This document shows positions 4,824-64,000 of a stretch of 64,000 nucleotides of DNA, piece after piece. The position numbers were made by a program, and so were the translations under genes. Source of the DNA: Thermodesulfobacteriota bacterium (lineage in GTDB: Bacteria > Desulfobacterota_D > UBA1144 > Nemesobacterales > JAJCZQ01); assembly GCA_965215275.1 (NCBI GenBank), contig OZ244044.1, positions 1,093,561 through 1,157,560 on the forward strand. Direction: 5' to 3'. The notes below the pieces were generated by a model that saw nothing but the letters and a program-made list of their open reading frames with translations, did not search any database and was not told the origin of the DNA. Within the stretch, counting starts at the first letter, position 1, and the number at the start of each line of letters is the position of its first letter.

Positions 4824-5765
4824 ATGTCAAAGAAAGCACCTGGGAAATCATACAGGAAAGGGATATCGTTAGTAAAGTTATTCAGGAAATTCCCTTCTGA
4901 TGCTGTTGCAGAGGAATGGTTTGTAAAACAGAGGTGGGGAAAGGAACCCGTATGTCCGTATTGCGGGACAAGAAACGTTCAGACCGGGACTGGTCATAAG
5001 ACAATGCCGTACAGGTACAGGGAAAAAGGACGTTCGAAATGGTTCAGTGCAAGGAGCAGGACAGTTATGCAGTCTTCTAATATCAGGTATCAGGCTTGGG
5101 CAGTGGCAATATATCTTTTTGCCACGTCATTAAAGGGAGTATCAAGTATGAAACTGCATAGAGATCTGGATATTACGCATAGGTCAGCATGGCATTTATC
5201 GCATCGTATCAGAGAGGCGTGGAACAGAGAAGAACTGCAAGTGTTTACAGGCTCCGTGGAGGCAGATGAGACGTTTACAGGTGGAAAGGAGAGAAACAAG
5301 CATAACAACAGGCGTAGTCATACACGAGGACCTGGAGGGAAGTCCATTGTTGCAGGAATGAAGAACAGAGAGACAAACAGGGTAACAGCACAACCGGTTT
5401 CTGAACGTAGTAAAGAGGAAATACAGGGTTTTACAGTTAAGAACGCAGGTAGTGGAGTAAAAACATATACCGATGATCATAAAAGCTATACAGGGTTGCC
5501 TTATGAGCATGAGAGCGTGGATCATAGTGTAAGGGAGTACGTTAAAGAGCAGGCACATGTAAACGGAGTGGGATCGTTCCGGGCAATGTTAAAAAGAGGA
5601 TATACCGGCACGTACCACAGAATGAGTAAAAAGCATTTAAATCGTTATGTAAATGAGTTTTCGGGGAGGCATAATATAAGAAGACTGGACACGGAAGATC
5701 AGATGGGAACAACAGCAAGGGCAATGTATGGAAAGACCTTGCCTTATAAAGAACTGATAAGGTAA
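4824..5765 (+). CDS. ISXO2-like / IS1595-family DDE transposase
   Basis: 313 aa with an N-terminal Zn-finger (CPYCGT) and an ADETFTGGKERNKH motif, characteristic of ISXO2-like transposases. Confidence 0.85.
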   Translation: MSKKAPGKSYRKGISLVKLFRKFPSDAVAEEWFVKQRWGKEPVCPYCGTRNVQTGTGHKTMPYRYREKGRSKWFSARSRTVMQSSNIRYQAWAVAIYLFATSLKGVSSMKLHRDLDITHRSAWHLSHRIREAWNREELQVFTGSVEADETFTGGKERNKHNNRRSHTRGPGGKSIVAGMKNRETNRVTAQPVSERSKEEIQGFTVKNAGSGVKTYTDDHKSYTGLPYEHESVDHSVREYVKEQAHVNGVGSFRAMLKRGYTGTYHRMSKKHLNRYVNEFSGRHNIRRLDTEDQMGTTARAMYGKTLPYKELIR

Positions 5766-7535: not shown

Positions 7536-8481
7536 TTACTGTGTTAACTCTTCAAAGGTTATAGTTTTTCCTGCCATATTTCTAAAAAGTGCATCCAGTT
7601 GATCTTGCGTGTCTGTTTTTACATTACCTTCATTTAACCTGAACGAAAACTCATCTATATATTTCTTAAGATGTTTTTTATTCCAATTGTGATATACACC
7701 TTTGTATCCACCCTTTAATACTGCCCAGACACTTTCAACCCCGTTTGTAGAAGCCATCGTATTTACAAACTCTTTTGCCCAATGATCGACCGTCTTATGC
7801 TCAAATTCTCTATCTGATAAACCTCTGTATCCTCTATGCTCATCTGTGTATATAATGGAACCTTCTGCAATGTTCTCTTTTATCTCTCTTGAAAGAGTTT
7901 CACTCTCTCTGTTCCGGATCACTTTTGCTCTGGTTCTGCCTCCCTTCTCCCTCATACCTGATATACAGACCTTTCCTGCAACTCCTCTGCCTTTATTTCG
8001 TTTCTTGCTCCCGTGCTTGTTCTTCTCAAGTCCACCTATGTATGTCTCGTCTATCTCTACTTCTCCTTTCAATAATACTTCCATATTACTTCCACAAGCA
8101 AGTCGCAACCTATGCAGCATATACCAGGCTGTTGTCTGGGTTACTTCTAACTCCTTGCTCAACTGTAAACTGCTTATTCCCTTTCGGGAAGTCATAAGCA
8201 AATATCCTGCAAATATCCACTTCCGCATACTCAAGTGGAGTGCCTGTTAAAGCAGTAAAATAACTCCGGCATTCCTTACACCAATACCTGCCATATGGTT
8301 TCTTCTGTCGTGTTATTTTCTTGCTGCTTCCACACTTTGTGCAGTTTATTTTCTTTCCCCAGCGTAATCCCTCAAAATACTTAATTACAGATTCTTTTGC
8401 AGGATACTTTTCCATTAACCCAAATAAACTGACCGTCTTCACATGTCTTTTTTTCATACAATAAATATGATCTTCTATCAT
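7536..8481 (-). pseudogene. IS1595-family (ISXO2-like) transposase disrupted by a frameshift; a second, divergent IS copy
   Basis: The N-terminal Zn-finger part (8110-8481) and the DDE part with GEVEIDETYIGGLEKNKH (7536-8234) sit in different frames and overlap at 8110-8234. Homologous to the intact 4824-5765 transposase. Confidence 0.75.
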
Positions 8482-8569
8482 CTCTTGTCAACTCTTGTGT
8501 CAATATATCCCCTGTTTTGTCAACTTCCCTATATAGTTCCCTAAGAAAGGAAAGAGAAAGACGTTATAC

Positions 8570-8599
8570 TTGACATTCGTTCATAATACCTGGTAAAAT
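8570..8599 (+). promoter_or_regulatory. sigma70-type promoter (TTGACA, 18-nt spacer, TAAAAT) for subtilase-family paralog 1
   Basis: TTGACA at 8570-8575 and TAAAAT at 8594-8599. The same block is conserved upstream of paralogs 2 and 3. Confidence 0.6.
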
Positions 8600-8645
8600 A
8601 AAAGAGTTATGAAAAGTTCAAACATAAAAACACGTAGTTCCATTA

Positions 8646-8657
8646 CCCCCCCCCCCC
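8646..8657 (+). repeat. homopolymeric C12 tract in the 5' UTR of paralog 1
   Basis: 12 consecutive C at 8646-8657. Paralog 2 has C11 at the equivalent site. Confidence 0.9.
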
Positions 8658-8703
8658 GTGTATACCTGACCTTTCAGCCTGGTATAAATATTTTGTAAGA
8701 ACA

Positions 8704-11700
8704 ATGTTTAAGATAATCCCCCCCCCATCTAAGTTATTACTAACCTTAGTCTTTATTCTACTGAGTATCATGGTCATAGCTGCAAAAGGGCAGAGCAGCC
8801 TGGAAGAAACATTATCTGAATGCAGAGATATCAGTGCAGGTCTGGAAGATCCGTTATACGGATGTCAGTGGCATCTGAATAACACTGGACAGTTAAGTAT
8901 TTCCGGAAAGAGAATAACAGCAGGAGAAGATATTAACGCAGAGGGAGTATGGAACGAAGAGGTATATGGTACTGGAATTAACGTAGCAGTTGTAAGTAAT
9001 GGAATAGACCTTTCACATGAGGACCTTTCTGCTAAGGTCCGTTCGGAACTGAACTACAACTTTTCTGGAAAAGATAATTCAGACAGTTCAGAGTTAAGTG
9101 GTACACGAGCGGCAGGAGTAACGGCAGCGGCTGGATATAACGGACTGGGAACAAGAGGAGTTGCACCTGGTGCGAGTATATACAGTAATAAGTTAACAGG
9201 AGATCTCAGGGAATCAGACGCAATGGAAGCAGGGGAAGCAATGGTGCGTAATAAAGAAATAACTGCAGTATCCGTCAGCGACCGGGGATCTGAGGACGGA
9301 GTTTTTCTTCAGGGTGCTTCGGCTGAGTGGGAAGAGGGAGTGGAAGAGGGTATAAGGGAAGGGTTTTACGGCAGGGGAATATTTTACGTCCTGGGAGCAG
9401 GGGACGGACATGAGAGCGGAGATCAGGCTAATTTTTCTGAATATTCCAATTACTACGGGGTAACAGCGGTGTGTTCAACGGACGGTTCTGGAAAGAAGAG
9501 CTTGTTTTCAGAAGAGGGAGTGAATCTGTGGGTATGTGCGCCTGGTCCTGATATAGCGACCACTGATAGCGACGACGATCACGCCGTGACGTCCGGAACT
9601 GTCCTTTCAGTTTCACGGGTCGCAGGTGTGGCGGCACTGCTGAGAGAGGTAAACGAAGACCTGAGCTGGAGGGATATAAAGCTTATACTTGCGGGTTCGG
9701 CACGGCAGAACGACGTTCCTGACATTAGCTGGGAGACTGGAGCGGTAAAATACGGTTCCGACGTGGAAAGATACAGATACAGTTCGAAATACGGTTTTGG
9801 CGTGGTGGACGCGGAGGCGGCCGCAGAGCTTGCCGGAAGCTGGAAAGGAGTGGGAGAAATGAGGACCGTTACAGCTTCCTCGGATAATGAACTGACGATC
9901 CCTGATGGAGAAGGAGAGGCGGACGGGGTCCTTACCTCCAGACTTATGATTTCGGACCTGGAGGAAATATTTACGGAGTTCGTTGAGGTAGAACTCGTTC
10001 TCTCGTGTGACTGCCTGCAGGACCTCAATATACGGATAACCTCTCCTTCCGGGACAGTATCGGAACTTGTGCGGGAGTCTGCCAGTGAGTTTGTAAGGGG
10101 ATCTTCGAATGAAGAAAACGACTGCGTCAGTTACCTGGGGAAAAAACATCGTTTCGGTTCGGCAAGACACCTCGGGGAAGACCCTTCCGGAGAATGGACC
10201 CTTAAGATATATAATACTGCTTCCGGAGATGAAGAAGATACAGAAAATACCGTTACCCTGCACTCATGGAGCATCAGGGTATACGGGCACGGGAAGGAAG
10301 ATACTTTAACGGACTTTGGCGGGGAGATCACTGCCAAGGCTTTAACTTTGGGTAATGTTCCTGGTGGTAGGCTGACCTGGACGCAACATAAGCTGGTAAA
10401 CGCAAGGTTATTCGAGGCAGCCGGAGGCAGGCCGCCGTATACTTACAGTTTAGCTCCTTTACCTCCTGGATTGAATTTTAACGGAACCACCAGAATTATA
10501 AACGGGAGACCGACCGCTGCAGGTGACACCGACGTTCAGTATACGGCAAGAGACGCAAATAACGATACGGCACGGAGTGACTTCGTTATAAGGATAACGG
10601 CGAACGCCGCGCCGGTTTTTGGCAGCAAGACGGTTGCTGCTCAGGTGTACACGGCAAGGAAAGCAATAGAACCATTGGAACTTCCCGAGGCAACGGGAGG
10701 GGATGGAACCTTGACTTACAATATAAGTGGTAACGTCAGGGGTATAGGGTTGAACTTTAACCGTAACACAAGGATACTGAGCGGAATGCCCACCAGTGTT
10801 ACGCCTGGTATTACAGCCGTTTATACCGCCACTGACGCAGATGGAGATACTGCCGAGCTGAGGTTCAATATACGGGTAAGACATCAGAACGACATACCGA
10901 CCTTCGGCAGTCAGATGGTAGATGATCAGAATTGGGTTAACGGCAGTGCGGTAAGGCTAACGCTGCCTCGTGCAAGAAACGGGAATGGAACGTTAACCTA
11001 CGGTATAACCCCTGCTTTGCCTGATGGACTGGACTTTGATCCTGGTACCAGAGTGCTGAGCGGAACACCGACCGCTGCGGCACCTGAGAACACTTACACG
11101 TATACGGTAACGGACAGTGATAACGATATTCATGAAAGTGATTCTGACAGTCTGACCTTCAGGATAAGAATAAAAGCTGCAACTGAAGTCCCAAGTTTCG
11201 GCAGTCAGACGGTAGGTAATAAGATTTATACAGCAGGGGTTCAAATATCACCATTCACGTTACCTCTTGCAACGCAAGGAACTGGAATTACACTCAGGTT
11301 AACCCCTCGTTTACCTTCCGGATTGAATTTTAACCATGCTACCGGAGAGATAAGTGGAATACCGACCACTGCAACGTCTGAGACTGATTATACATGGAGA
11401 GCAACGGACAGAGACGGATATACGGCTGAGATAACGTTCAGTATAACGATAAGAGCAGCAGACACGGAACCGACCTTCGGCGGTGAGACGACGGATGATC
11501 AGGAATACGTGGCAGGAAGTCAGATAACGCCGGTAACGCTGCCAGTGGCAACGGGAGGAAATGCTCCGTTAGCCTACGGTATAACCCCTGATCTGCCTGC
11601 TGGACTGGACTTTGATGAAAACGCCCGAGTGCTGAGCGGAACACCTACTACTGCAACGAGTAAGAATACCTATACATATACTGTAACGGACGAAGATGGA

Positions 11701-12483
11701 GACACGGATGAAATTGAGTTCGGTATCACCGTGTCGGAGGACACAATGCCGACCTTCGACGGTGAGACGATAGAAGACAAGGTGACCGTTAACGGCGTTA
11801 CAGAAGTAATGGAAACGCTGCCTCTTGCAACAGGAGGGAACGGAACGCTGACTTACAGTTTAACTGATGCCGGTTCAAATGCTTTGAATTTATTTGCCGG
11901 ACTGGACTGGGATGACAACACCCGGGTGCTGAGCGGAACACCCAATATCGGTTCAGCGCTGCTTCATCTGCTTCCTCGAACCGAGACTTACACGTGGACG
12001 GTAACGGACGAAGATGGAGATACAGCAGAGATAACGTTCAGTATAGTAATAGAAGAAGACAGCATGCCGGAATTCAGTGTGACGACGATAGAAGATCAGG
12101 TGTACAGGGGGAGATCAATAATGTTGCCGGTAGCAACGGGAGGGAATGCACCGTTAGTATACAGTATAACGCCTCCCTTACCTCCTGTATTGAGATTGAA
12201 CGAAAACACCGGGGTAATAAGCGGGACGTCCGTCCGTGCGTCATCTGCTGCTACTTACAGGTATACGGTAACGGACAGGGACGGAGACATGAAAGAGTTG
12301 ACCTTCAGGTTCAGTGCAGCGGCTCCGCCACCGACAAGTAGTAATTCAGGCGGAGGTGGAGGATGTGCTGTATCAGATCAGAGCATCGCCATTTTTGATA
12401 TTCTCGGAGTAATGGCATGTCTGATACTTATACCCGTGTCTGTAATTATCAGAAGGAAAAGAAGATCTCAGATAAAGACTTAG
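8704..12483 (+). CDS. large secreted kexin/subtilisin-like (S8) domain protein. Includes a P-domain, about 7-8 He_PIG (putative Ig / cadherin-like) repeats, and a C-terminal Gly-run/Cys–TM–basic sorting signal. Catalytic triad apparently substituted (pseudoprotease).
   Basis: 1259 aa. Signal peptide MFKIIPPPSKLLLTLVFILLSIMVIAAKG. Subtilase motifs are degenerate: VAVVSNGID (Asp→Ser), SGTRAAG (aligned with HGTRCAG of furin, His→Ser), TSGTVLS (aligned with GTS, Ser→Val). P-domain-like ITSPSGTVSEL...GEWTLKIYN. Repeats LPxATGGNGTLTY...LPxGLxFDxxTRVLSGTPT...TYTVTDxDGDTAE. C-terminus GGGGGCAVS...LILIPVSVII-RRKRRSQIKT. Confidence 0.8.
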   Translation: MFKIIPPPSKLLLTLVFILLSIMVIAAKGQSSLEETLSECRDISAGLEDPLYGCQWHLNNTGQLSISGKRITAGEDINAEGVWNEEVYGTGINVAVVSNGIDLSHEDLSAKVRSELNYNFSGKDNSDSSELSGTRAAGVTAAAGYNGLGTRGVAPGASIYSNKLTGDLRESDAMEAGEAMVRNKEITAVSVSDRGSEDGVFLQGASAEWEEGVEEGIREGFYGRGIFYVLGAGDGHESGDQANFSEYSNYYGVTAVCSTDGSGKKSLFSEEGVNLWVCAPGPDIATTDSDDDHAVTSGTVLSVSRVAGVAALLREVNEDLSWRDIKLILAGSARQNDVPDISWETGAVKYGSDVERYRYSSKYGFGVVDAEAAAELAGSWKGVGEMRTVTASSDNELTIPDGEGEADGVLTSRLMISDLEEIFTEFVEVELVLSCDCLQDLNIRITSPSGTVSELVRESASEFVRGSSNEENDCVSYLGKKHRFGSARHLGEDPSGEWTLKIYNTASGDEEDTENTVTLHSWSIRVYGHGKEDTLTDFGGEITAKALTLGNVPGGRLTWTQHKLVNARLFEAAGGRPPYTYSLAPLPPGLNFNGTTRIINGRPTAAGDTDVQYTARDANNDTARSDFVIRITANAAPVFGSKTVAAQVYTARKAIEPLELPEATGGDGTLTYNISGNVRGIGLNFNRNTRILSGMPTSVTPGITAVYTATDADGDTAELRFNIRVRHQNDIPTFGSQMVDDQNWVNGSAVRLTLPRARNGNGTLTYGITPALPDGLDFDPGTRVLSGTPTAAAPENTYTYTVTDSDNDIHESDSDSLTFRIRIKAATEVPSFGSQTVGNKIYTAGVQISPFTLPLATQGTGITLRLTPRLPSGLNFNHATGEISGIPTTATSETDYTWRATDRDGYTAEITFSITIRAADTEPTFGGETTDDQEYVAGSQITPVTLPVATGGNAPLAYGITPDLPAGLDFDENARVLSGTPTTATSKNTYTYTVTDEDGDTDEIEFGITVSEDTMPTFDGETIEDKVTVNGVTEVMETLPLATGGNGTLTYSLTDAGSNALNLFAGLDWDDNTRVLSGTPNIGSALLHLLPRTETYTWTVTDEDGDTAEITFSIVIEEDSMPEFSVTTIEDQVYRGRSIMLPVATGGNAPLVYSITPPLPPVLRLNENTGVISGTSVRASSAATYRYTVTDRDGDMKELTFRFSAAAPPPTSSNSGGGGGCAVSDQSIAIFDILGVMACLILIPVSVIIRRKRRSQIKT
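8718..8726 (+). repeat. homopolymeric C9 tract inside codons 5-8 (PPP) of paralog 1
   Basis: ATG TTT AAG ATA ATC CCC CCC CCA; the downstream frame is in-phase (ON). Confidence 0.9.
10330..12300 (+). repeat. array of about 95-aa He_PIG/cadherin-like tandem protein repeats within paralog 1
   Basis: Recurrent motif LP(V/L)ATGGN(G/A)(T/P)LTYxITPxLPxGLxFDxxTRVLSGTPT...YTYTVTDxDGDTxE seen at least 7 times. Confidence 0.7.
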
Positions 12484-12994
12484 TAATGAGGTCCTTTCAA
12501 AGGTATTGAACTAACCAAGATATTTCCCATCAGAATATTTGCTGGTTGCTTACGGGAGAAGAAGTGGTATCTCCATAGTTAAAGTCCTCTTTTTCTTTTG
12601 ATCTTCAATGTTCTTATTACCACAAGGTTTTCCACCCGATACAAATATGATACTGTTAAAAACGTCTTTTTTATTCATTTGGCGGAGTTAGCTATATAAT
12701 TTCCTAAATAATGTTTACTGTAAGCTATTCAAGGCAGAAATCAGTCCACAAATTACAGTTCCAATTATAAACACGCCTAGCCGGAGTGGAAAATCTTAAA
12801 CAAATTGTGGAAAAAACATGTTGTAATAGTTTGCAAAGTGATAGATTCATCACCTTCTCAACCCCTACATCAAAAACCAAAAACACAATAAAGGTCACTT
12901 ATAGGAACGAACCTGTTTTTGACATATACCTGATGATCTTCCTGAAACTAAAAACTTAAATCCTGATATAAACCATCAAGGTCCATTACAACTC

Positions 12995-24761: not shown

Positions 24762-24829
24762 AAGGGGAAATACTCCCCACATCCTGATATCATTATCATT
24801 GTAAGAAAGGAAAGAGAAAGACATCACAC

Positions 24830-24858
24830 TTGACATCCGTTCATAATACGAGTAAAAT
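24830..24858 (+). promoter_or_regulatory. sigma70-type promoter (TTGACA, 17-nt spacer, TAAAAT) for paralog 2
   Basis: Sequence block from about 24800 to 25090 is about 85-90% identical to 8540-8830. Confidence 0.6.
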
Positions 24859-24904
24859 ATCAATGTTATGAAAAATCCAAACATAAAAACACGTAGTTCC
24901 ATTA

Positions 24905-24915
24905 CCCCCCCCCCC
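24905..24915 (+). repeat. homopolymeric C11 tract in the 5' UTR of paralog 2
   Basis: 11 consecutive C. Confidence 0.9.
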
Positions 24916-24976
24916 GTGTATACCTGAACTTTCAGTCTGGTATAAGTATTTTGTAAGAACAATGTTTAAGATAATA

Positions 24977-24985
24977 CCCCCCCCC
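24977..24985 (+). repeat. homopolymeric C9 tract at codons 6-8 of paralog 2; the frame is broken here
   Basis: ATG TTT AAG ATA ATA CCC CCC CCC ATC TAA. There is one extra nucleotide relative to paralog 1 before the tract, and the homologous frame resumes at 24975. Confidence 0.85.
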
Positions 24986-26559
24986 ATCTAAGTCATTACT
25001 AACGTTAGTCTTATTTCTTCTGATTATTATGGTCATAGCTGCAAAAGGGCAGAGCAGTCTGGAAGAAACATTATCTGAATGCAGAGGTATGAGTTCAGAC
25101 ACGGAAGATCCGTTATACGGATGTCAGTGGCATCTGAAAAACACGGGGCAGTTTGGTTTTTCCGGAAAGAGAATAACAGCAGGAGAAGATATAAACATAG
25201 AGGGAGTGTGGAACGAAGACGTATACGGTACCGGAATTAACATAGCAATAGTAAGTAACGGCATTGACCTTTCACATGAGGACCTTTCTGCTAAGGTCCG
25301 TTCCGGACTGAACTATGATCTGTCTGACAGTTCATCTTTTAGTGGAACACGAGCGGCAGGTGTAATAGCAGCAACTGGATATAACGGACTGGGAGTAAGA
25401 GGAACAGCACCTGGTGCGAGTATATACAGTTACAGGTTATCCGGTGATCTCAGTGAAGCGGACGCGGTGGTCCGTAATAAGGAAATAACTGCAGTATTGG
25501 TTAACGGCCGGGGATATGAGGAAGGAGCTTTTTTTCAGGAGGCTTTGGCTGAGTGGGAAGAAGGAGTGGAACTTGGAATAAGAGAAGGGTTTTATGGTAA
25601 AGGTGTGTTTTACGTCCGGGGAGCAGGGGACGGTCATGAGAATAACGATCAGGCTAATTTTTCTGAATATTCAAACTATTACGGAGTAACGGCTGTGTGT
25701 TCAACGGACGGTTCTGGAAAGAAGAGTTTATTTTCAGAAGAGGGAGTAAATCTATGGGTATGTGCACCTGGTTCTGATATTGTGACCACAGATAATAACG
25801 ACGGCTACGTTGTAACTTCCGGAACATTTCTATCAGCTTCACAGGTTGGAGGAGTGGCAGCACTGCTGAGAGAGATAAATGGACAGCTGAGCTGGAGGGA
25901 TATAAAGCTTATACTTGCGGGTTCAGCACGGCAGAACGATTTTTTTGATATGAGCTGGGAGACTGGAGCTGTTAAATACGGTTCTGATACGGAAAGATAT
26001 AAATATAATCCTAAGTATGGTTTTGGCGTGGTAGACGCAGAAGCAGCTGCAGAACTTGCAAAAAGCTGGAAAGGCGTTGGAGAGATGAGGACCATTACAG
26101 CTTCTTCAGATAATGAACTGACAATTCCTGATGGAGAAGGAGAAGCAGACGGGGTCCTTGTTTCCAGACTTATGATCCCGGACCTGGAGGAAATATTTAC
26201 GGAATTCGTTGAGGTAGAACTTGTTTTCTCTCATGACCGCTTACAGGACCTTGATATAAAAATAACCTCTCCTTCCGGGACAGTATCTGAACTTGTAAGG
26301 GAGTTTTCAGGGGAAGCGGAAGACGCTGATATCAGTTACCTGAGAAGAACACATCGTTTCGGGTCGGCAAAGCACCTCGGAGAAGACCCTTCCGGAGAAT
26401 GAATCCTTAAAATATCCGATACTGCTTCCGGAGATGAAGAAGCAGAAGATGGAGAAGAAGTGGGGACCTTACACTCATGGAGCATTAAGGTATACGGGAA
26501 TTTTTATCAGGGACATGGCAGTGAGATCACTACTAAAGCTATAAGTCTGCCTTTTATTG

Positions 26560-28800
26560 CTAATAAGGAATACACACAAAATACTTCAGTAGAAGACACG
26601 TATCCTGAAGCAACGGGAGATAATCCGCCTTATACTTATAGATTTGTTCGCGGTACATTACCAGATGGACTAAGCTTTGATCCTGACACCCGGGTGCTGA
26701 GCGGAACACCAACTACTGTAGGTAGGAAAACTGCTCAATATTTAGCAGAAGACGCAAGTGGAGATATAGCAAGGAGGACCTTCTTTATAACTATAACAGC
26801 AGGACCGCCAACCTTTTCAGGAGCAACGGTCCCTGAACAGATATGGACGGAAGGGGTAAGGATACCAACATTACGTTTTCCTAATGCAACGGGAGGTAAC
26901 GGAACTTTAACATACTTTTTAAGTCCTGCGCAGCCAGTTGGTATCAGCAGACAGGACAACAGGTTATTCGGAACACCTACGGAACCTCAAAGAAGATCTC
27001 TTTATACATGGACAGTCAGAGACAAAGATAATGATGAGGATATTATTGAGTTCTATATTACTGTAAGAGAGAACGTCCCTACCTTCGGAGGTCAGACCAT
27101 ACCTCAGCAGAATTATATAGTAGGCAGAACAATACAAAGATTAGTATTTCCTCGTGCAACGGGAGAGGAACCGTTAACTTACAATTTAGAAGGAGGTCCG
27201 ACTAATTTACCAGGTGGATTGAACTTAGTAAGTAATCCAACAAGTATAATAGGAACACCAACTACAACGGCGGACATTAATTACAGATGGACAGTTACGG
27301 ACAAAGATGGAGATAAGACAGAACTTCCGTTCAGGATGAAGATAAGGTCTGCATCTGAAGTACCGGACTTCGGCAGTGAGACGGTAGAAGATCAGGTGTG
27401 GGGTAACGGCAGAGCAGTAACGTTAACTCTGCCTCAGGCAACTGGAGGGAATGGAACTTTAAATTACAGTTTAAGCGGTGTTATACCAAATGGACTTACT
27501 TTTAACCAAAACACCAGAACGTTAAGTGGAACGCTCAACATTGTTGATACAAGTATATTACCTGTAACTGGAACTTATACCTGGAAGGTAACTGACTCTG
27601 ACTCAGATGATGACGGTGATTCTGACAGTATTACCTTCTCTATTACTATAGAAACTGATTCAGAGCCGAGCTTCGGAGGTCAGACCATCCCAAATCAGAC
27701 ATATATTGAAAGGACAACCTTCGGTCTTCCAGTAACGCTGCCTGAAGCAGTTACAAATACAGGGAATGGGACTTTAATTTACAGTTTAAACCGTAGTTTA
27801 CCTAGTGGTTTGAGCTTTGATCCTGCTACCAGAGTGATAAGTGGAACTCCAACTCATAGGCAACCTATTTTTTCAACTTATACATATAGGGTAAGAGATA
27901 ATGATGGAGATACGGCTAATCTGAGTTTCCGCCTGCAAATAATCGGTAACACCCGGCCAAGCTTTCATAATACGATAACAGATAAGGTGTATTATACGTT
28001 TACAGCAGTAACGGAAACGTTACCTGAGGCAGCACAAAATAATAATCCACCTTCAACTTACAGTTTAACTCCTGCATTACCTGATGGACTGATCTTTACC
28101 CCTGCTACCAGAGAGATAACAGGAACACCAACTGCTGCAATGTCTGAGACTGATTACACGTATACGGTTGCTGATCTAAATGGAGATACGGACGAGTTAA
28201 CATTCAGTATCACTGTATTGGCAGTAGCAGACACGGAACCGACCTTCGGCAGTGAAACTATAGATAACAAGGTATATATAAACTACGGAGAAGCAGTAAC
28301 GGAAACACTGCCTGAAGCAACGTCAGGGAATGCACCATTAACTTACAGTTTAAAGAGGGACCATTTTGGTAGTTTCACTACTGCTTTATTTAAGGGATTG
28401 ACATTTACTGCAAACACCAGAGAGTTAAGCGGAACACCCAATCTTGATATTCATCCAAGTCTATTTCCTGTAACTGCTACTCATACATATAAAGTAAGAG
28501 ACAATGATGGAGATACAGCAGAGATAATGTTCAGTATAACAATAGAAGAAGACAGCGAACCGGACTTCAGCGGTGTGACAATACCAGATCGTGTGTACAC
28601 GGGGAGAACAATAGAGCTGCCAGAGGCAGCGGGAGGGAATTTACCAGTTACTTACAGTATAACACCTGATCTGCCAGCTGGATTGAGATTTAACGAAGTA
28701 ACGCGGGAAATAAGTGGGACACCCAGGAGTGCATCAACAAGAACTTACACGTATACGGTAACGGACAGCAATGGAGATACGGATGATGCGACTTTCATGC
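26560..28800 (+). repeat. He_PIG/cadherin-like tandem repeat array of paralog 2; repeat number and sequence diverge from paralog 1
   Basis: At least 8 copies of LPxATGGNGTL(T/N)Y...GL(S/T)FxxxTRxxSGTP...YT(Y/W)xVxDxDGDT. Confidence 0.7.
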
Positions 28801-29237
28801 TCAGTGTAGAGGTTACTTCTACTCCAGGACCAACACCACCACGAGGACCAAGAACGTCAGGTACTGATTCAGGCGGAGGTGGAGGAGGATGTGCTGTATC
28901 AGAGCAGAGCAGCGTTGATGAAGATATTCTCGGAGTAATGACATGTCTGATACTTATACCTGTGTCAGTAACGATAAGAAGAAAGAGAAGAGCTCAGGTA
29001 AAGACTTAGCAATGCACTTCTTTCAAAGGTATTTCTGAGAGAATTGGAGTCTGGTTTTCTTTTATAAGTTCGTTGAGGAGAACGGGTGTATTACCGTGTA
29101 TTGAGCTATAGTATGTAATTCCCTTTATATAACTGTCAGTTATATAAGTTATTTAATTTTTCTTATGTCTGGTTATCAAGATAATTCCGAAGCTATCTAT
29201 ACAGATTTGCAGGACAGAAAAACTTATTACTTGGCTG

Positions 29238-44630: not shown

Positions 44631-44704
44631 GGGCCCATAGCTCAGTTGGTCAGAGCAGCGGACTCATAATCCGTTGGTCCCAGGTTCGAGTCCTGGTGGG
44701 CCCA
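44631..44704 (+). tRNA. tRNA-Met (anticodon CAT; elongator type, or tRNA-Ile2 if lysidinylated)
   Basis: 74-nt cloverleaf: acceptor GGGCCCA/TGGGCCC, D-arm GCTC/GAGC, anticodon loop CTCATAA, T-loop TTCGAGT. The anticodon stem has GGA rather than GGG, so it is not an initiator tRNA. CCA is not encoded. Confidence 0.85.
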
Positions 44705-45966: not shown

Positions 45967-46333
45967 GGCGAGTTAGCTAAGCGGTCGCTTGCTCAGGCAA
46001 GAGGAAAGTCCGAACTTCAAAGGGTAGTGTGCTGGTTAATGGCCAGGTACCGTGAGGTAACGGAAAGTGCCTCAGAAAAGATACCGCCTATGCATAATAT
46101 ATGCAGGTAAGGGTGAAATGGCAGTGTAAGAGACTACCGCTCTGATCGGTGACGATCATTGGCAAGGCAAACCCCGCACGAAGAAAGGCAAAATAGAGAA
46201 GCACCTGAAACTTTCGTTTCAGACTGGGCGACCCGTCCAATGCTTCCGGGTGTGCCGCTAAAGATATTCAGTAATGAATATTTTAGATGAATGACCGCTC
46301 ACGACAGAATTCGGCTTACAGGTTAACTCGCTG
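45967..46333 (+). ncRNA. rnpB: RNase P RNA (bacterial type A)
   Basis: P4 strand GAGGAAAGTCCG. AACGGAAAGTGCCTCAGAAA...ACCGCC. TAAGGGTGAAATGGCAGTGTAAGAGACTACCGC. 3' end GATGAATGACCGCTCACGACAGAATTCGGCTTA nearly identical to E. coli M1 RNA. P1 helix GCGAGTTA (45968-45975) pairs with TAACTCGC (46324-46331). Confidence 0.9.
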
Positions 46334-46369
46334 CTAAATTTCTCTAATACGTTTCAGGAGAACAACAGA

Positions 46370-60765: not shown

Positions 60766-61876
60766 ATGAGCGAAGATAACAGACTGGATGTAAACCAGCT
60801 TCAGAGCAGAATCAAATCTATCTGGGACTCTCTTTGACATCGCAGATAAAAATTCACGGTTGAACGAGATAGAATCTCTGATAAACGCCCACGATTTCTG
60901 GAACGATAAGACCGAAGCACAGTCAATTTTAAAAGAGCAAGCACGTATCAGGAACTCACTAAATACGTGGGAATTGCTGCGTTCTGAGCTTGAAGACCTG
61001 GAAGTTCTGATAGAACTTTGTGATGAATCCAACGACGAAGAACTGCAGAGTGAAATTGATATAAAGCACGGTAATCTGGTCTCCAAGATCGAGGAACTTG
61101 AGTTTAAAAAGGTCCTCAGTGCCACCGACGACGAAAGAAATGCAATAATGTCAATAAATTCCGGTGCCGGAGGCACGGAAGCACAGGACTGGGCGGACAT
61201 GTTGTTCAGAATGTACTTAAGATATGCTGAAAGCAAAGACTATAAGACGAACATATTAGATCTGCAGGACGGAGATGAAGCAGGAATTAAAAATGTAACC
61301 TTTTTAATAGAGGGAAGTTATGCATTTGGCTATTTAAAAGGTGAAAGCGGTGTCCACAGACTTGTAAGAATTTCGCCATTTGACTCTAATAAGCGTCGAC
61401 ACACCTCTTTTGCCTCGGTTTTCGTATCTCCCGAAGTGGACGATCTGATTGAAGTGGAAATTGAGGATAAAGATTTAAGGGTCGACACTTTCAGGGCAAG
61501 TGGTAAAGGTGGTCAGCATGTTAACAAAACAGACTCCGCCATAAGGATCACACATATGCCAACAGGTATGGTTGTCAGCTGTCAGAACGAAAGATCCCAA
61601 CATCAAAACAGGATTAACGCTATGAAGATACTGAAGGCAAGGATCTATGAAATGGAAAGAGAGAAGAAACAAAAGTTAATTGAGGAGATGAACTCAAGTA
61701 AGATGGAGATAGGCTGGGGCAGTCAGATACGTTCTTATGTAATGCATCCATACAGAATGGTCAAAGACCACAGAACGAACTTTGAAGAAAGCAACATAGA
61801 TGCGGTAATGGATGGAGATATTGACAATCTGATCAAAAAATATCTACTGTATCAAGCTGACAATAGAGTAAACTAA
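60766..61876 (+). CDS. prfB: peptide chain release factor 2, expressed via a programmed +1 ribosomal frameshift at CTT TGA C (60832-60838)
   Basis: Frame 0: ATG 60766 ...TCT CTT TGA (25 codons). The +1 frame continues GAC ATC GCA... into ORF 60860-61876, which contains the GGQ-region SGAGGQHVNKT and the SPF-like RF2 domain. Confidence 0.85.
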
Positions 61877-62911: not shown

Positions 62912-62941
62912 TTGACATTCATTAATAATACAAAGTAAAAT
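62912..62941 (+). promoter_or_regulatory. sigma70-type promoter (TTGACA, 18-nt spacer, TAAAAT) for paralog 3, same block as paralogs 1 and 2
   Basis: cttgacattcattaataatacaaagtaaaat, compared with cttgacattcgttcataatacctggtaaaat. Confidence 0.55.
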
Positions 62942-62951
62942 AGAAAAAGTC

Positions 62952-64000
62952 ATGAACATCCTGTTTAGAGTAACACCCCCCCCCATAAGTTATTAATTCC
63001 CTTTTTCTTTCTTCTGTGCTTTGTAAACGTTGGTGCATATGGTCAGACCAGCGTTGATAACTGCGACTCCAGTGCAACGACAGAAGCTACATTGACAGTA
63101 GCCGGAAGTACACGTAGTGGAAGTTTAGCTGCCGGTGCTGATCCGCATTACTTTCAGATAGACGTGAATGAAAGATTGATCGTGGCTATAATAGTAACCT
63201 TCCCCTTCTCCAATGATCAGGGATACAGTTTACAGGTATGTGACAGCAATAATTATCTGATAGCAAGTGCTGCTGGAGTTCGTATTGAGGATGAGGGTAT
63301 AGTGAAGGTCACTATAGAAACCCGCCTCAGACCTGGAACGTACTATATAGTAGTGGGAAGCCGTGTTGCCACGTCCTACAATGTTGCAGTTGTGGTATCT
63401 GATCTTAATACTGTATTTGATGATGACTGCCCGGAAAGTAGTACTACAAATTATCCAAACGACACCTTATACGGTTGTCAGTGGTATCTGAAACGTCAGG
63501 CGGGTGAGTTTATATTAGGTGAAAAGACAATACCCGATACGGAATATGCAGACATAAACATAGAAGAGGTCTGGGATGATAACGTATTTGGAGCTGAGAT
63601 TAACGTAGCGGTGGTAGATCATGGCATGGACACAGATCATGAGGACCTTGCTGATAACGTGGATACTACACTTTCTCATGATTACTCAGGAAGCGGTGAT
63701 CTGTACAGTCCTTTCAGTGGTCGCGGCACACGTGTGGCAGGCATTATAGCAGCAGTGGGTGATAACAGCCTTGGAGTAAGAGGTGTAGCACCTCAGGCAA
63801 GCATCTACAGTTATAATTTAGCTGATAACTTCAGTGATACTAATGCAAAGGACGCCATGGTCCGTAATAAGGATATAACGGCTGTATCTGTCAACAACTG
63901 GGGACCGAAGGACCTGCCGGTTCTTACAGAGGCTTCATCAGAGTGGGAAGAAGGAGTGGAAACTGGTATAAGAGAAGGATTTGGTGGTAAAGGAGTATTT
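62952..64000 (+). pseudogene. paralog 3 of the kexin-like surface protein family (5' part only, continues beyond the window). Currently frameshifted at the C9 tract. Encodes a signal peptide, an extra N-terminal about 140-aa β-sandwich-like domain, then the subtilase-like domain (Asp retained in VVDHGMD, His→Arg in GRGTRVAG).
   Basis: Frame 62984-64000 has no stop and translates HKLLIPFFFLLCFVNVGAYGQTSVDNCD...YGCQWYLKRQ...VAVVDHGMDTDHEDL...SGRGTRVAGIIAAVGDNSLGVRGVAPQASIYSY...MVRNKDITAVSVNNWG...EWEEGVETGIREGFGGKGVF, homologous to paralogs 1 and 2. Confidence 0.75.
62976..62984 (+). repeat. homopolymeric C9 tract at codons 9-11 of paralog 3; out of phase
   Basis: ATG(62952) AAC ATC CTG TTT AGA GTA ACA CCC CCC CCC ATA AGT TAT TAA. 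The long open frame begins at 62984 (+1 relative). Confidence 0.85.

Follow-up and report, generated by a model that had tools for sequence, protein, structure and literature searches.

A subtilase fold followed by a P-domain is common to the proteases of the kexin/furin type (MEROPS S8B) and to the bacterial kexin-like protease ASP. The proprotein-convertase family also includes PCSK9, a protein with a binding role that keeps its triad for autoprocessing and is encoded by a single eukaryotic gene. Few bacterial pseudoenzymes have a demonstrated role, and the only bacterial subtilase examples that we found in the literature are the Csp proteins of Clostridioides difficile, which retain a prodomain. 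Homopolymeric tracts, for their part, switch families of surface genes, such as the poly-G/C genes of Campylobacter, Helicobacter and Neisseria and the Vlp genes of Mycoplasma. Here we describe a gene family from a Thermodesulfobacteriota bacterium, three members of which lie on the forward strand of a 64,000-nucleotide stretch of DNA (assembly GCA_965215275.1, contig OZ244044.1, positions 1,093,561 to 1,157,560; hereafter the window) and are referred to as copies 1, 2 and 3. From the sequences alone, we consider it moderately probable that copy 1 (8704-12483) and its relatives constitute a lineage-specific family of at least 20 loci that encode phase-variable, non-catalytic kexin-like proteins for display in the envelope or at the cell surface.

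Copy 1 is an intact, in-frame open reading frame (ORF) of 1259 residues whose product is modular throughout. A predicted signal peptide (MFKIIPPPSKLLLTLVFILLSIMVIAAKG; 8704-8790), recognized by eye rather than by a predictor from its basic N-terminus, hydrophobic core and small-residue end, precedes an S8-like pseudo-catalytic domain (aa 45-385; 8836-9858), a P-domain of the proprotein-convertase type (aa 386-530; 9859-10293), seven Ig/cadherin-like He_PIG repeats of about 95 residues each (aa 545-1205; 10336-12318) and a tripartite C-terminal signal (12337-12480), all encoded on the plus strand. Pfam returned significant matches to Peptidase_S8 (PF00082; aa 89-344, E 5.5e-20), to P_proprotein (PF01483; aa 426-525, E 1.7e-12) and, over seven stretches, to He_PIG (PF05345; E 3e-57). 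The head, that is, the S8-like domain and the P-domain directly after it, is that of a kexin: in a phmmer search of the PDB the best matches of copy 1 were Kex2 (2id4, E 9.6e-33) and furin (about 1e-30), both covering the catalytic and the P domain, and the P-domain aligns with those of Kex2 and furin. An AlphaFold2 model of residues 31-545, built from 89 homologues, reached a mean predicted local distance difference test score of 89.8 and a predicted template modelling (TM) score of 0.92, and Foldseek searches with this model placed Kex2 and furin on top over both domains (E 3e-44, TM 0.82/0.88), with ASP, the bacterial kexin-like protease of Aeromonas sobria, next.

On this well-preserved scaffold the catalytic site is replaced. 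In the alignment with Kex2, VVSNGID of copy 1 stands opposite IVDDGLD, so that the catalytic Asp is a Ser (Ser98, 8995-8997); SGTRAAG stands opposite HGTRCAG, with the His again a Ser (Ser132, 9097-9099); GAGDGH stands opposite ASGNGG, with the oxyanion Asn an Asp (Asp234, 9403-9405); and SGTVLS stands opposite GGTSAA, with the catalytic Ser a Val (Val300, 9601-9603). The same four columns were identified in a MAFFT alignment that included the 120 best homologues in the database, 94 of which have the canonical Asp, His, oxyanion Asn and Ser (D-H-N-S), and they read S-S-D-V in copy 1 and S-S-D-F in copy 2. The substrate-binding strand is affected as well, SVSDRGS being found in copy 1 instead of the conserved SNNSWGP (SDRGS, aa 192-196, for SWGP), and one Asp of the S1 pocket is a Ser. 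A triad shifted to neighbouring positions was looked for and rejected: no alternative Asp, His or Ser is conserved near the triad columns of the alignment, and the sole His between the Asp and His positions, that of an HEDL motif, is conserved in active homologues too. With Ser98, Ser132 and Val300 at the triad columns, copy 1 is therefore a non-peptidase homologue. Two small tandem duplications of 12-18 nt were also seen in this part of copy 1, at 9108-9143 and 9325-9350.

The family is far larger than the window suggests. Although tblastn finds exactly three family copies in the 64 kb and none beyond them, 19 of the best database matches map to one contig of 1,990,023 bp, which also carries the window, since three of its proteins (P0002, P0130 and P0025; database proteins are given P numbers here, and loci of related assemblies L numbers) are window ORFs. 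Together with copy 1, these 19 matches put at least 20 family loci on that contig, in a genome-wide census that counts protein matches only. By the residues at the Asp, His, oxyanion and Ser columns, the members fall into four subfamilies. Subfamily A (S, S or T, D, V or F) comprises copies 1 and 2, P0001, P0003 and P0006, the last an N-terminally truncated call in which the Asp and His columns are missing; subfamily B (D-R-D-A) includes P0004, P0005, P0009 and others; subfamily C (D-R-D-S) holds copy 3 (P0025) and eleven others; and subfamily D (P0007, P0008, P0010-P0013 and P0030) has an intact D-H-N-S site. Among more distant homologues (36-50% identity) Asp, His and Ser are intact in all but P0038, which has Gly for Ser, and the oxyanion Asn is substituted in two others. 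By neighbour joining, subfamilies A, B and C group in a single clade beside the intact-triad D, which, together with the site states, fits a stepwise loss in which His and the oxyanion Asn went before Ser, with Asp and the substrate strand lost in addition in A; in B and C an SWG-type strand (NNWGP) is retained, as is much of the S1 region. Dead and active paralogues coexist within genomes and have stalk and anchor in common.

These results both bear out and correct an initial annotation of the window, which had described a conserved three-member family of secreted, apparently dead kexin-like proteases with a subtilase domain, a P-domain and He_PIG arrays. The domain assignments are borne out by the Pfam matches, and the kexin-like fold by the structural model; the substitution of Asp, His and Ser was found for copy 1 in the Kex2 alignment and for copies 1 and 2 in the MAFFT alignment; and copy 1 is indeed the sole in-frame copy in the window. 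The count of three does not hold, as there are at least 20 loci in four subfamilies, one of them with intact triads. For copy 3, the reported retention of Asp (VVDHGMD) and replacement of His by Arg (GRGTRVAG) are correct, yet the picture of a dead triad was incomplete, as the catalytic Ser is kept as well. Finally, conservation of the family despite its apparent loss of activity, likewise proposed at the outset, agrees with the substitution rates described below. The binding, decoy or surface-structural role that the annotation put forward in place of proteolysis is taken here as a conjecture.

Two measures of constraint point the same way. Of 109 core head columns, defined by conservation of 95% or more across 90 active outgroup proteins with intact triads, subfamily A keeps 93, B 100 and C 91, compared with 105 in the intact D, and the columns lost in A include D98, H132, N192/S193/W194, N234 and S300. 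Judged by these columns, the loss is targeted to the catalytic site and is not a general decay of the head. Ratios of nonsynonymous to synonymous substitution rates (dN/dS, Nei-Gojobori) between copies 1 and 2 are 0.22 in the S8 domain and 0.25 in the P-domain, 0.37 in the tail and 0.50 in the He_PIG array, which with 49% amino acid identity and seven versus eight repeats has diverged faster than the head; the signal peptide, head and tail are conserved between the two copies. Head values are 0.30-0.42 in subfamily C and 0.41 in B, and the one intact-triad pair measured (P0010 versus P0013, subfamily D) gives 0.38. As the triad-less state is common to copies 1 and 2, their divergence postdates the loss of catalysis, and by this measure the heads are under purifying selection with no sign of relaxed constraint. 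Purifying selection and the preserved core columns together argue for a retained, non-catalytic function. Tandem Repeats Finder detected no DNA-level tandem repeat in the He_PIG array, only small duplications of 9-18 nt, which indicates that the repeats are old and diverged. Elsewhere in the family, five tandem copies of HEDLS stand just after the former catalytic-Asp strand of P0128 (1293 aa, subfamily A), in which GVEE is also duplicated; together with the small duplications in copy 1, this makes the loops around the dead cleft look like preferred sites of in-frame repeat variation. P0129 (1431 aa) carries an N-S-D-A site after some 640 residues of repeated N-terminal modules, as read from its sequence.

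The second distinguishing feature of the pseudo-type genes lies at their 5' ends. Upstream of copy 1 is a sigma-70-type promoter (8570-8599, plus strand) with TTGACA, an 18-nt spacer, TAAAAT and a TG extension, matching the consensus at 11 of 12 positions, and its form (TTGACA, 17-18 nt, TAAAAT) is conserved across the paralogues. Within the coding sequence, a C9 tract (8718-8726) specifies PPP at codons 5-8 of the signal peptide; only one length in three leaves the frame open, and in copy 1, where this is C9, translation with C8 or C10 would end within 12 codons. The window contains runs of at least eight C at the three family loci only (15 overlapping C8 matches versus 1.6 expected), and in each gene the tract codes for PPP within signal-peptide codons 5-11. 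We compared the three window copies with eight loci from related assemblies, five pseudo-type and three with intact triads. The promoter box (TTGACATYC...TAAAAT) and a C8 or C9 tract are present at all five of the former (L079, L083, L084, L085 and L088), and neither was found at the latter (L080, L082 and L086), so that with the window included the association stands at 8/8 pseudo-type versus 0/3 intact-triad loci. The readable N-termini of the subfamily D proteins P0008, P0011 and P0030 likewise contain no Pro run. No two of the pseudo-type loci examined share flanks. A scan of Joint Genome Institute (JGI) metagenomes for the promoter-plus-tract pattern gave no matches.

Reading frames at these tracts exist in both states. 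Across the eight pseudo-type loci, three from the window and five from four other assemblies, copy 1 (C9) and L079 (C8) are in frame (ON) and the remaining six are out of frame (OFF). In simulations, gain or loss of a single C opens the frame at five of the six OFF loci; the sixth, L084, was simulated from a wrong ATG, and its tract and flanks are as in copy 3. L079, L083 and L088 lie on contigs with SPAdes-style names, presumed to be short-read assemblies, and their ON and OFF states are therefore probably not homopolymer errors of long reads. Most pseudo-type proteins called on the 1.99-Mb contig begin downstream of the signal peptide, as would be expected if their tracts were OFF. As far as the reading frames tell, the contingency-locus design is real, in that a change of tract length would alter the frame. 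The poly-C contingency system suspected in the initial annotation is accordingly upheld as a frame-switch design, with tracts confined in the window to the three family loci and most loci one base from an open frame.

Subfamily A genes carry an additional tract. Between promoter and coding sequence of copy 1, a promoter-proximal upstream ORF (uORF) of 29 codons (MKSSNIKTRSSITPPPRVYLTFQPGINIL, then a stop; 8609-8698, plus strand) contains a C12 run (8646-8657), and its stop lies 5 nt short of the main ATG; with C13 it would read in frame into the main ORF, and with C11 it would terminate early. The equivalent in copy 2 (about 24868-24927) has C11 (24905-24915) and an earlier stop. This uORF insertion is a feature of subfamily A and is lacking in copy 3 and at subfamily B and C loci. 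Translational coupling through the uORF tract could add a second layer to the switch.

Promoter, uORF leader, coding sequence and a short tail together make up the paralogous unit of copy 1 (8542-12507, plus strand), as delimited by blastn against copy 2: homology runs from 8542/24802 to 12507/29033, with 82% identity over the 5' block (8542-10287). Recent gene conversion among the copies was considered and set aside, since there are no long near-identical tracts and the best block is this 82% identical one. Copy 2 (unit 24802-29033, plus strand; promoter 24830-24858, ATG 24962, coding sequence 24962-29009 with its stop at 29009) carries eight He_PIG repeats; its C9 tract (24977-24985) puts it out of frame, and C8 or C11 would reopen it. 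It also has an in-frame TGA (26400-26402) at the site of the conserved Trp in GEWTL. This TGA is a genuine stop here, because prfB, the release factor 2 gene (about 60767-61876), carries the classical programmed +1 frameshift site CTT TGA C (about 60832-60838). Apart from the tract, it is the single stop in 1344 codons, and the two ORF fragments of copy 2 are the database proteins P0002 and P0130. Copy 3 (62912-64000, plus strand; promoter 62912-62941, ATG 62952) begins with a PPC-like domain followed by the start of the S8 domain, where the window end cuts the gene; it is OFF at its C9 tract (62976-62984) and needs C10 or C7, and its product is the database protein P0025 (785 aa), identical over the 302 residues compared.

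All subfamilies share the same C-terminus, composed of GGGGC-x2-S-x-Q, a hydrophobic segment (...LMLIPVSV...) and IRRKxR; in copy 1 these elements are GGGGC-AVSDQS, the transmembrane segment IFDILGVMACLILIPVSVII and RRKRRSQIKT. When 18 tails were aligned, no variation was seen at G-G-G-C, S, Q, LxLI, S and R, which upholds the conservation of the C-terminal signal noted in the initial annotation; its description of the proteins as secreted needs correction, since with a C-terminal transmembrane anchor or sorting signal they are not simply secreted. None of the NCBIfam CTERM models reaches its cut-off on these tails. The nearest are Synerg-CTERM (15.4 bits for the best single tail shown against a cut-off of 22.5; best E over the 18 tails 0.0035) and JDVT-CTERM (best E 0.02, below cut-off), both of them invariant-Cys signals that have been proposed to be cut by CPBP 'myxosortases' (10.1101/2023.06.07.544157). 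A word-index search with the 48-residue tail gave no candidates, and a profile search was used instead, which retrieved 16 clusters among 1.84 billion representatives, 15 of them at E<=1e-10 and all 16 with the motif at the C-terminus. Nine of these 15 clusters, scanned with Pfam, as well as P0020, P0001 and P0028, have domains of this family (S8, P_proprotein, He_PIG or PPC), and three short fragments contain family-type motifs by sequence reading rather than Pfam scan. A related tail (GGGC, 13 residues, LLMLIPFVVVFRRRK; E 7.5e-4) occurs in P0133 (L081:8001-9461), a beta-helix/NosD-like protein, and the signal may thus serve other cargo in related lineages. Furthermore, in a related metagenome-assembled genome (MAG; GCA_964348445.1, CAYGCP010000010.1) a CPBP/Rce1-like intramembrane protease gene of 211 codons (L084:543-1178) lies directly upstream of P0020. 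Its EExxxR, FxxxH and HxxxN motifs are intact, and its best NCBIfam matches, none of which reaches its cut-off, are the myxosortase models MrtP, Mrt_core, MrtC and MrtS. This adjacency fits the pairing of Cys-type CTERM signals with CPBP proteases put forward in 10.1101/2023.06.07.544157, and the L084 protein is a candidate for the enzyme that sorts by the GGGGC tail. Relatives of this protease are widespread in MAGs of about 1.5-2.7 Mb, those with names including Thermodesulfobacteriota (52% identity) and Candidatus Dadabacteria (41%).

A history consistent with these observations would begin with a constitutively expressed, active protease with a signal peptide, a PPC-like domain, an S8 domain, a P-domain, a few He_PIG repeats and a C-terminal anchor, a type still present in the members with an intact D-H-N-S site. 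Catalysis would have been lost stepwise in one monophyletic clade, with His to Arg and the oxyanion Asn to Asp first and Ser to Ala later, while in subfamily A Asp to Ser, His to Ser or Thr, Ser to Val or Phe and the loss of the SWG substrate strand would have come about. The heads would have been retained in folded form without catalysis, and would most plausibly bind ligands or serve as antigens, at the N-terminal and membrane-distal end of an Ig-like He_PIG stalk tethered through the Cys-containing tripartite signal. As every pseudo-type gene has the same strong promoter and, among its signal-peptide codons, a C8-C9 tract, slipped-strand mispairing during replication could turn each gene ON and OFF independently, and each cell would display a random subset of about 18 variants, as in classical contingency loci; a likely benefit would be to evade, or to tune, recognition by a host or by phages. 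More tentatively, and as a scenario that we hold to be possible rather than probable, the loss of catalysis and the gain of a portable promoter/poly-C/signal-peptide cassette may have been coupled, converting a housekeeping surface protease into some 18 stochastically expressed, non-catalytic display proteins, with a two-tract switch in subfamily A and sorting through an undescribed Cys-type CTERM signal.

Several observations weigh against a switched, non-catalytic surface family and temper our confidence in it. Subfamily C keeps both Asp and Ser, so that residual or unusual activity is conceivable. Variation in tract length was seen between different paralogues and assemblies only. Copy 2 carries a nonsense codon on top of its OFF tract and, disabled twice, may be a recent pseudogene, and some members may be dying. 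If left unsorted, a protein with a signal peptide and a C-terminal transmembrane segment with a basic tail would be anchored in the inner membrane and face the periplasm. As to the sorting enzyme, adjacency to a CPBP gene was found at one locus only, neither a motif regular expression nor tblastn detected a CPBP gene in the window, no orthologue of the L084 protein from the 1.99-Mb contig was among the best 120 of its 151 matches, and its family has a much wider distribution than the tail motif. For these reasons we treat the CPBP protease as a lead only.

Other accounts of the same data have to be weighed against this one. The dead heads might act as partners or decoys that regulate, chaperone or shield the subfamily D proteases, for instance by soaking up host protease inhibitors or holding substrates, in the way that CspC and CspA control the active CspB, and would then not primarily be variable antigens. 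The coexistence of active and dead paralogues with a common stalk and anchor in the same genomes is in keeping with such a role, as are the NNWGP strand and the much-preserved S1 region of B and C, which could still bind peptides or inhibitors, and the precedent of regulatory subtilase pseudoenzymes, to the extent that PMC6636752 and PMC7200643 describe them. We nevertheless consider it unlikely, as subfamily A is without the substrate strand and the S1 Asp, which makes canonical binding in its cleft improbable, stochastic switching of some 18 genes is a better match for a heterogeneous population than for regulation by stoichiometry, and at the loci examined dead copies were not seen linked to active ones in an operon. 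Alternatively, the pseudo-type genes could be decaying relics of a burst of duplication, in which case the frameshifts and the TGA would be ordinary inactivating mutations. Six of the eight poly-C loci are out of frame, copy 2 has its in-frame TGA, several database members are N-terminally truncated calls, and IS1595 and IS605-type elements flank copy 1, all of which would be expected of relics; on the other hand, head dN/dS values of 0.22-0.42 are not above that of the one intact-triad pair, 85-92% of the core columns are kept in A, B and C, copy 2 has accumulated a single stop apart from the tract, the promoter is conserved at every locus, and the frameshifts fall at a homopolymer in the same codon position, five of the six OFF loci being one base from ON and the sixth resembling copy 3. 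Set against each other, these points leave general decay with a small probability.

Yet smaller is the probability that some members, chiefly of subfamily C, are still proteases that cleave in a non-canonical manner or process themselves once. Subfamily C does keep Asp, Ser and the NNWGP strand, and in PC2 an oxyanion-position Asp does not preclude activity; however, we know of no S8 enzyme with Arg as a general base, A has lost all three triad residues and B both His and Ser, and no alternative Asp, His or Ser is conserved at nearby columns. There is, finally, the question of whether the switch is an artefact, either because tract lengths were miscalled or because slippage of RNA polymerase restores the frame, so that all copies would be expressed more or less constitutively. 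Homopolymers are error-prone and all tracts are C8-C9, within one base of ON, but both OFF and ON states also occur on the independent contigs with SPAdes-style names, tract length relative to the frame differs among loci, and the association of the tract with pseudo-type genes does not depend on its exact length; we regard this explanation as very improbable. A phase-variable display family with non-catalytic heads remains the reading that we favour.

The three copies are dispersed in the window between housekeeping genes (purH, ispE, nadA/nadB, glnD, GOGAT, futalosine-pathway genes, argG and tyrS). Mobile elements lie upstream of copy 1, namely a TnpB/IS605 OrfB-like gene (1459-2913), an IS1595 transposase gene (4824-5765) and a second one (7536-8481) that is frameshifted into two overlapping ORFs and ends about 60 nt before the paralogous unit. 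Rfam identified only RNase P RNA class A (45969-46334, 285 bits) and a tRNA-Met (44631-44704), both ordinary, and no rRNA in the window. In the related assemblies, L085 carries two family genes in tandem (259-1044 and 1501-2973), and the intact-triad P0030 is separated from the P-domain and He_PIG part in two independent assemblies (L086/L087). Intact-triad homologues with S8 and P-domains (39-47% identity) were also seen in many phylogenetically unrelated MAGs, assigned to Dehalococcoidia, Binatia, Acidimicrobiales/Poriferisodalis, Spongiisociaceae and Gammaproteobacteria, and FN3, cadherin or LRR domains are also present in many of the corresponding entries of the protein database. The great majority of the distant intact-triad homologues belong to sponge-associated MAGs, with sponge hosts indicated by several taxon or bin names. 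This distribution hints at horizontal spread of kexin-like surface proteases within the sponge habitat, and the organism studied here, to judge by the record titles and names of homologues, is possibly sponge-associated. It is diderm, as indicated by a TolC-like OEP gene in the window and a TonB-dependent receptor gene in a relative.

In comparison with described systems, the family is closest in fold to the S8B enzymes, with a subtilase domain followed by a P-domain and TM scores of 0.79-0.88 to Kex2, furin and ASP (PDB 3hjr). Like furin and Kex2 it has an N-terminal signal peptide and a C-terminal transmembrane segment with a basic tail, and like ASP it is without an N-terminal I9-type prodomain in the copy 1 family. 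It differs from these enzymes in that the catalytic residues and the oxyanion Asn of copy 1 are replaced and the SWG strand is lost in subfamily A, and in its long He_PIG stalk, its poly-C control and its size of at least 20 members here. PCSK9 offers an analogy as a proprotein-convertase-type protein with what may be a similarly non-proteolytic role, but the triad is lost in copy 1 and the genes are many. Like CspC and CspA, which combine an S8 fold and substituted triads with a non-catalytic role beside an active paralogue, the dead heads are found with active relatives; the Csp proteins differ in that, as far as PMC6636752 and PMC7200643 describe them, they are soluble spore germination proteins, have no P-domain, repeat stalk or membrane anchor, are not phase-variable and number few per genome. 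A bile-acid germinant receptor of the CspC type was rejected on the negligible score of copy 1 with the NCBIfam model NF040808 (14.4 bits against a cut-off of 675) and on the diderm nature of the organism.

Literature searches on kexin-like proteins, He_PIG domains or phase variation in sponge symbionts found nothing relevant, and although subtilase pseudoenzymes, contingency loci based on homopolymers and sorting signals of the Cys type have each been described before, we found no account of their combination in a multigene family of kexin-like pseudo-proteases in which the loss of catalysis goes together with a gained poly-C switch. Within one genome, the family provides a graded series from intact sites through loss of His, then of His and Ser, to loss of all three residues, with selection maintained at each stage and a regulatory shift from no tract to poly-C control, and the use of a dead protease fold thereby becomes directly testable by comparison of paralogues. 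As in the Cys-type CTERM signals of the MYXO-CTERM or myxosortase class, the tail combines an invariant-Cys motif, a transmembrane helix and an Arg/Lys cluster at the extreme C-terminus; it is set apart from the curated members by its GGGGC-x2-S-x-Q signature and by cargo drawn almost only from this family, and would add a candidate new member to that class. With homopolymer contingency families the gene family shares a tract in the first codons or upstream, independent ON and OFF states among paralogues and fast divergence of the parts predicted to be exposed, and differs from them in its cargo, a pseudo-protease on an Ig-like stalk, in the second, uORF tract of subfamily A and in its host, an uncultured bacterium with a 2-Mb genome. 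Confirmed switching would extend contingency-locus biology beyond classical pathogens into an uncultured environmental or symbiotic lineage. If the reading favoured here is true, this would be the first antigenic- or phase-variation system built on pseudo-proteases, and contingency loci would help to shape the interfaces between symbionts and their hosts or phages in marine invertebrate microbiomes.

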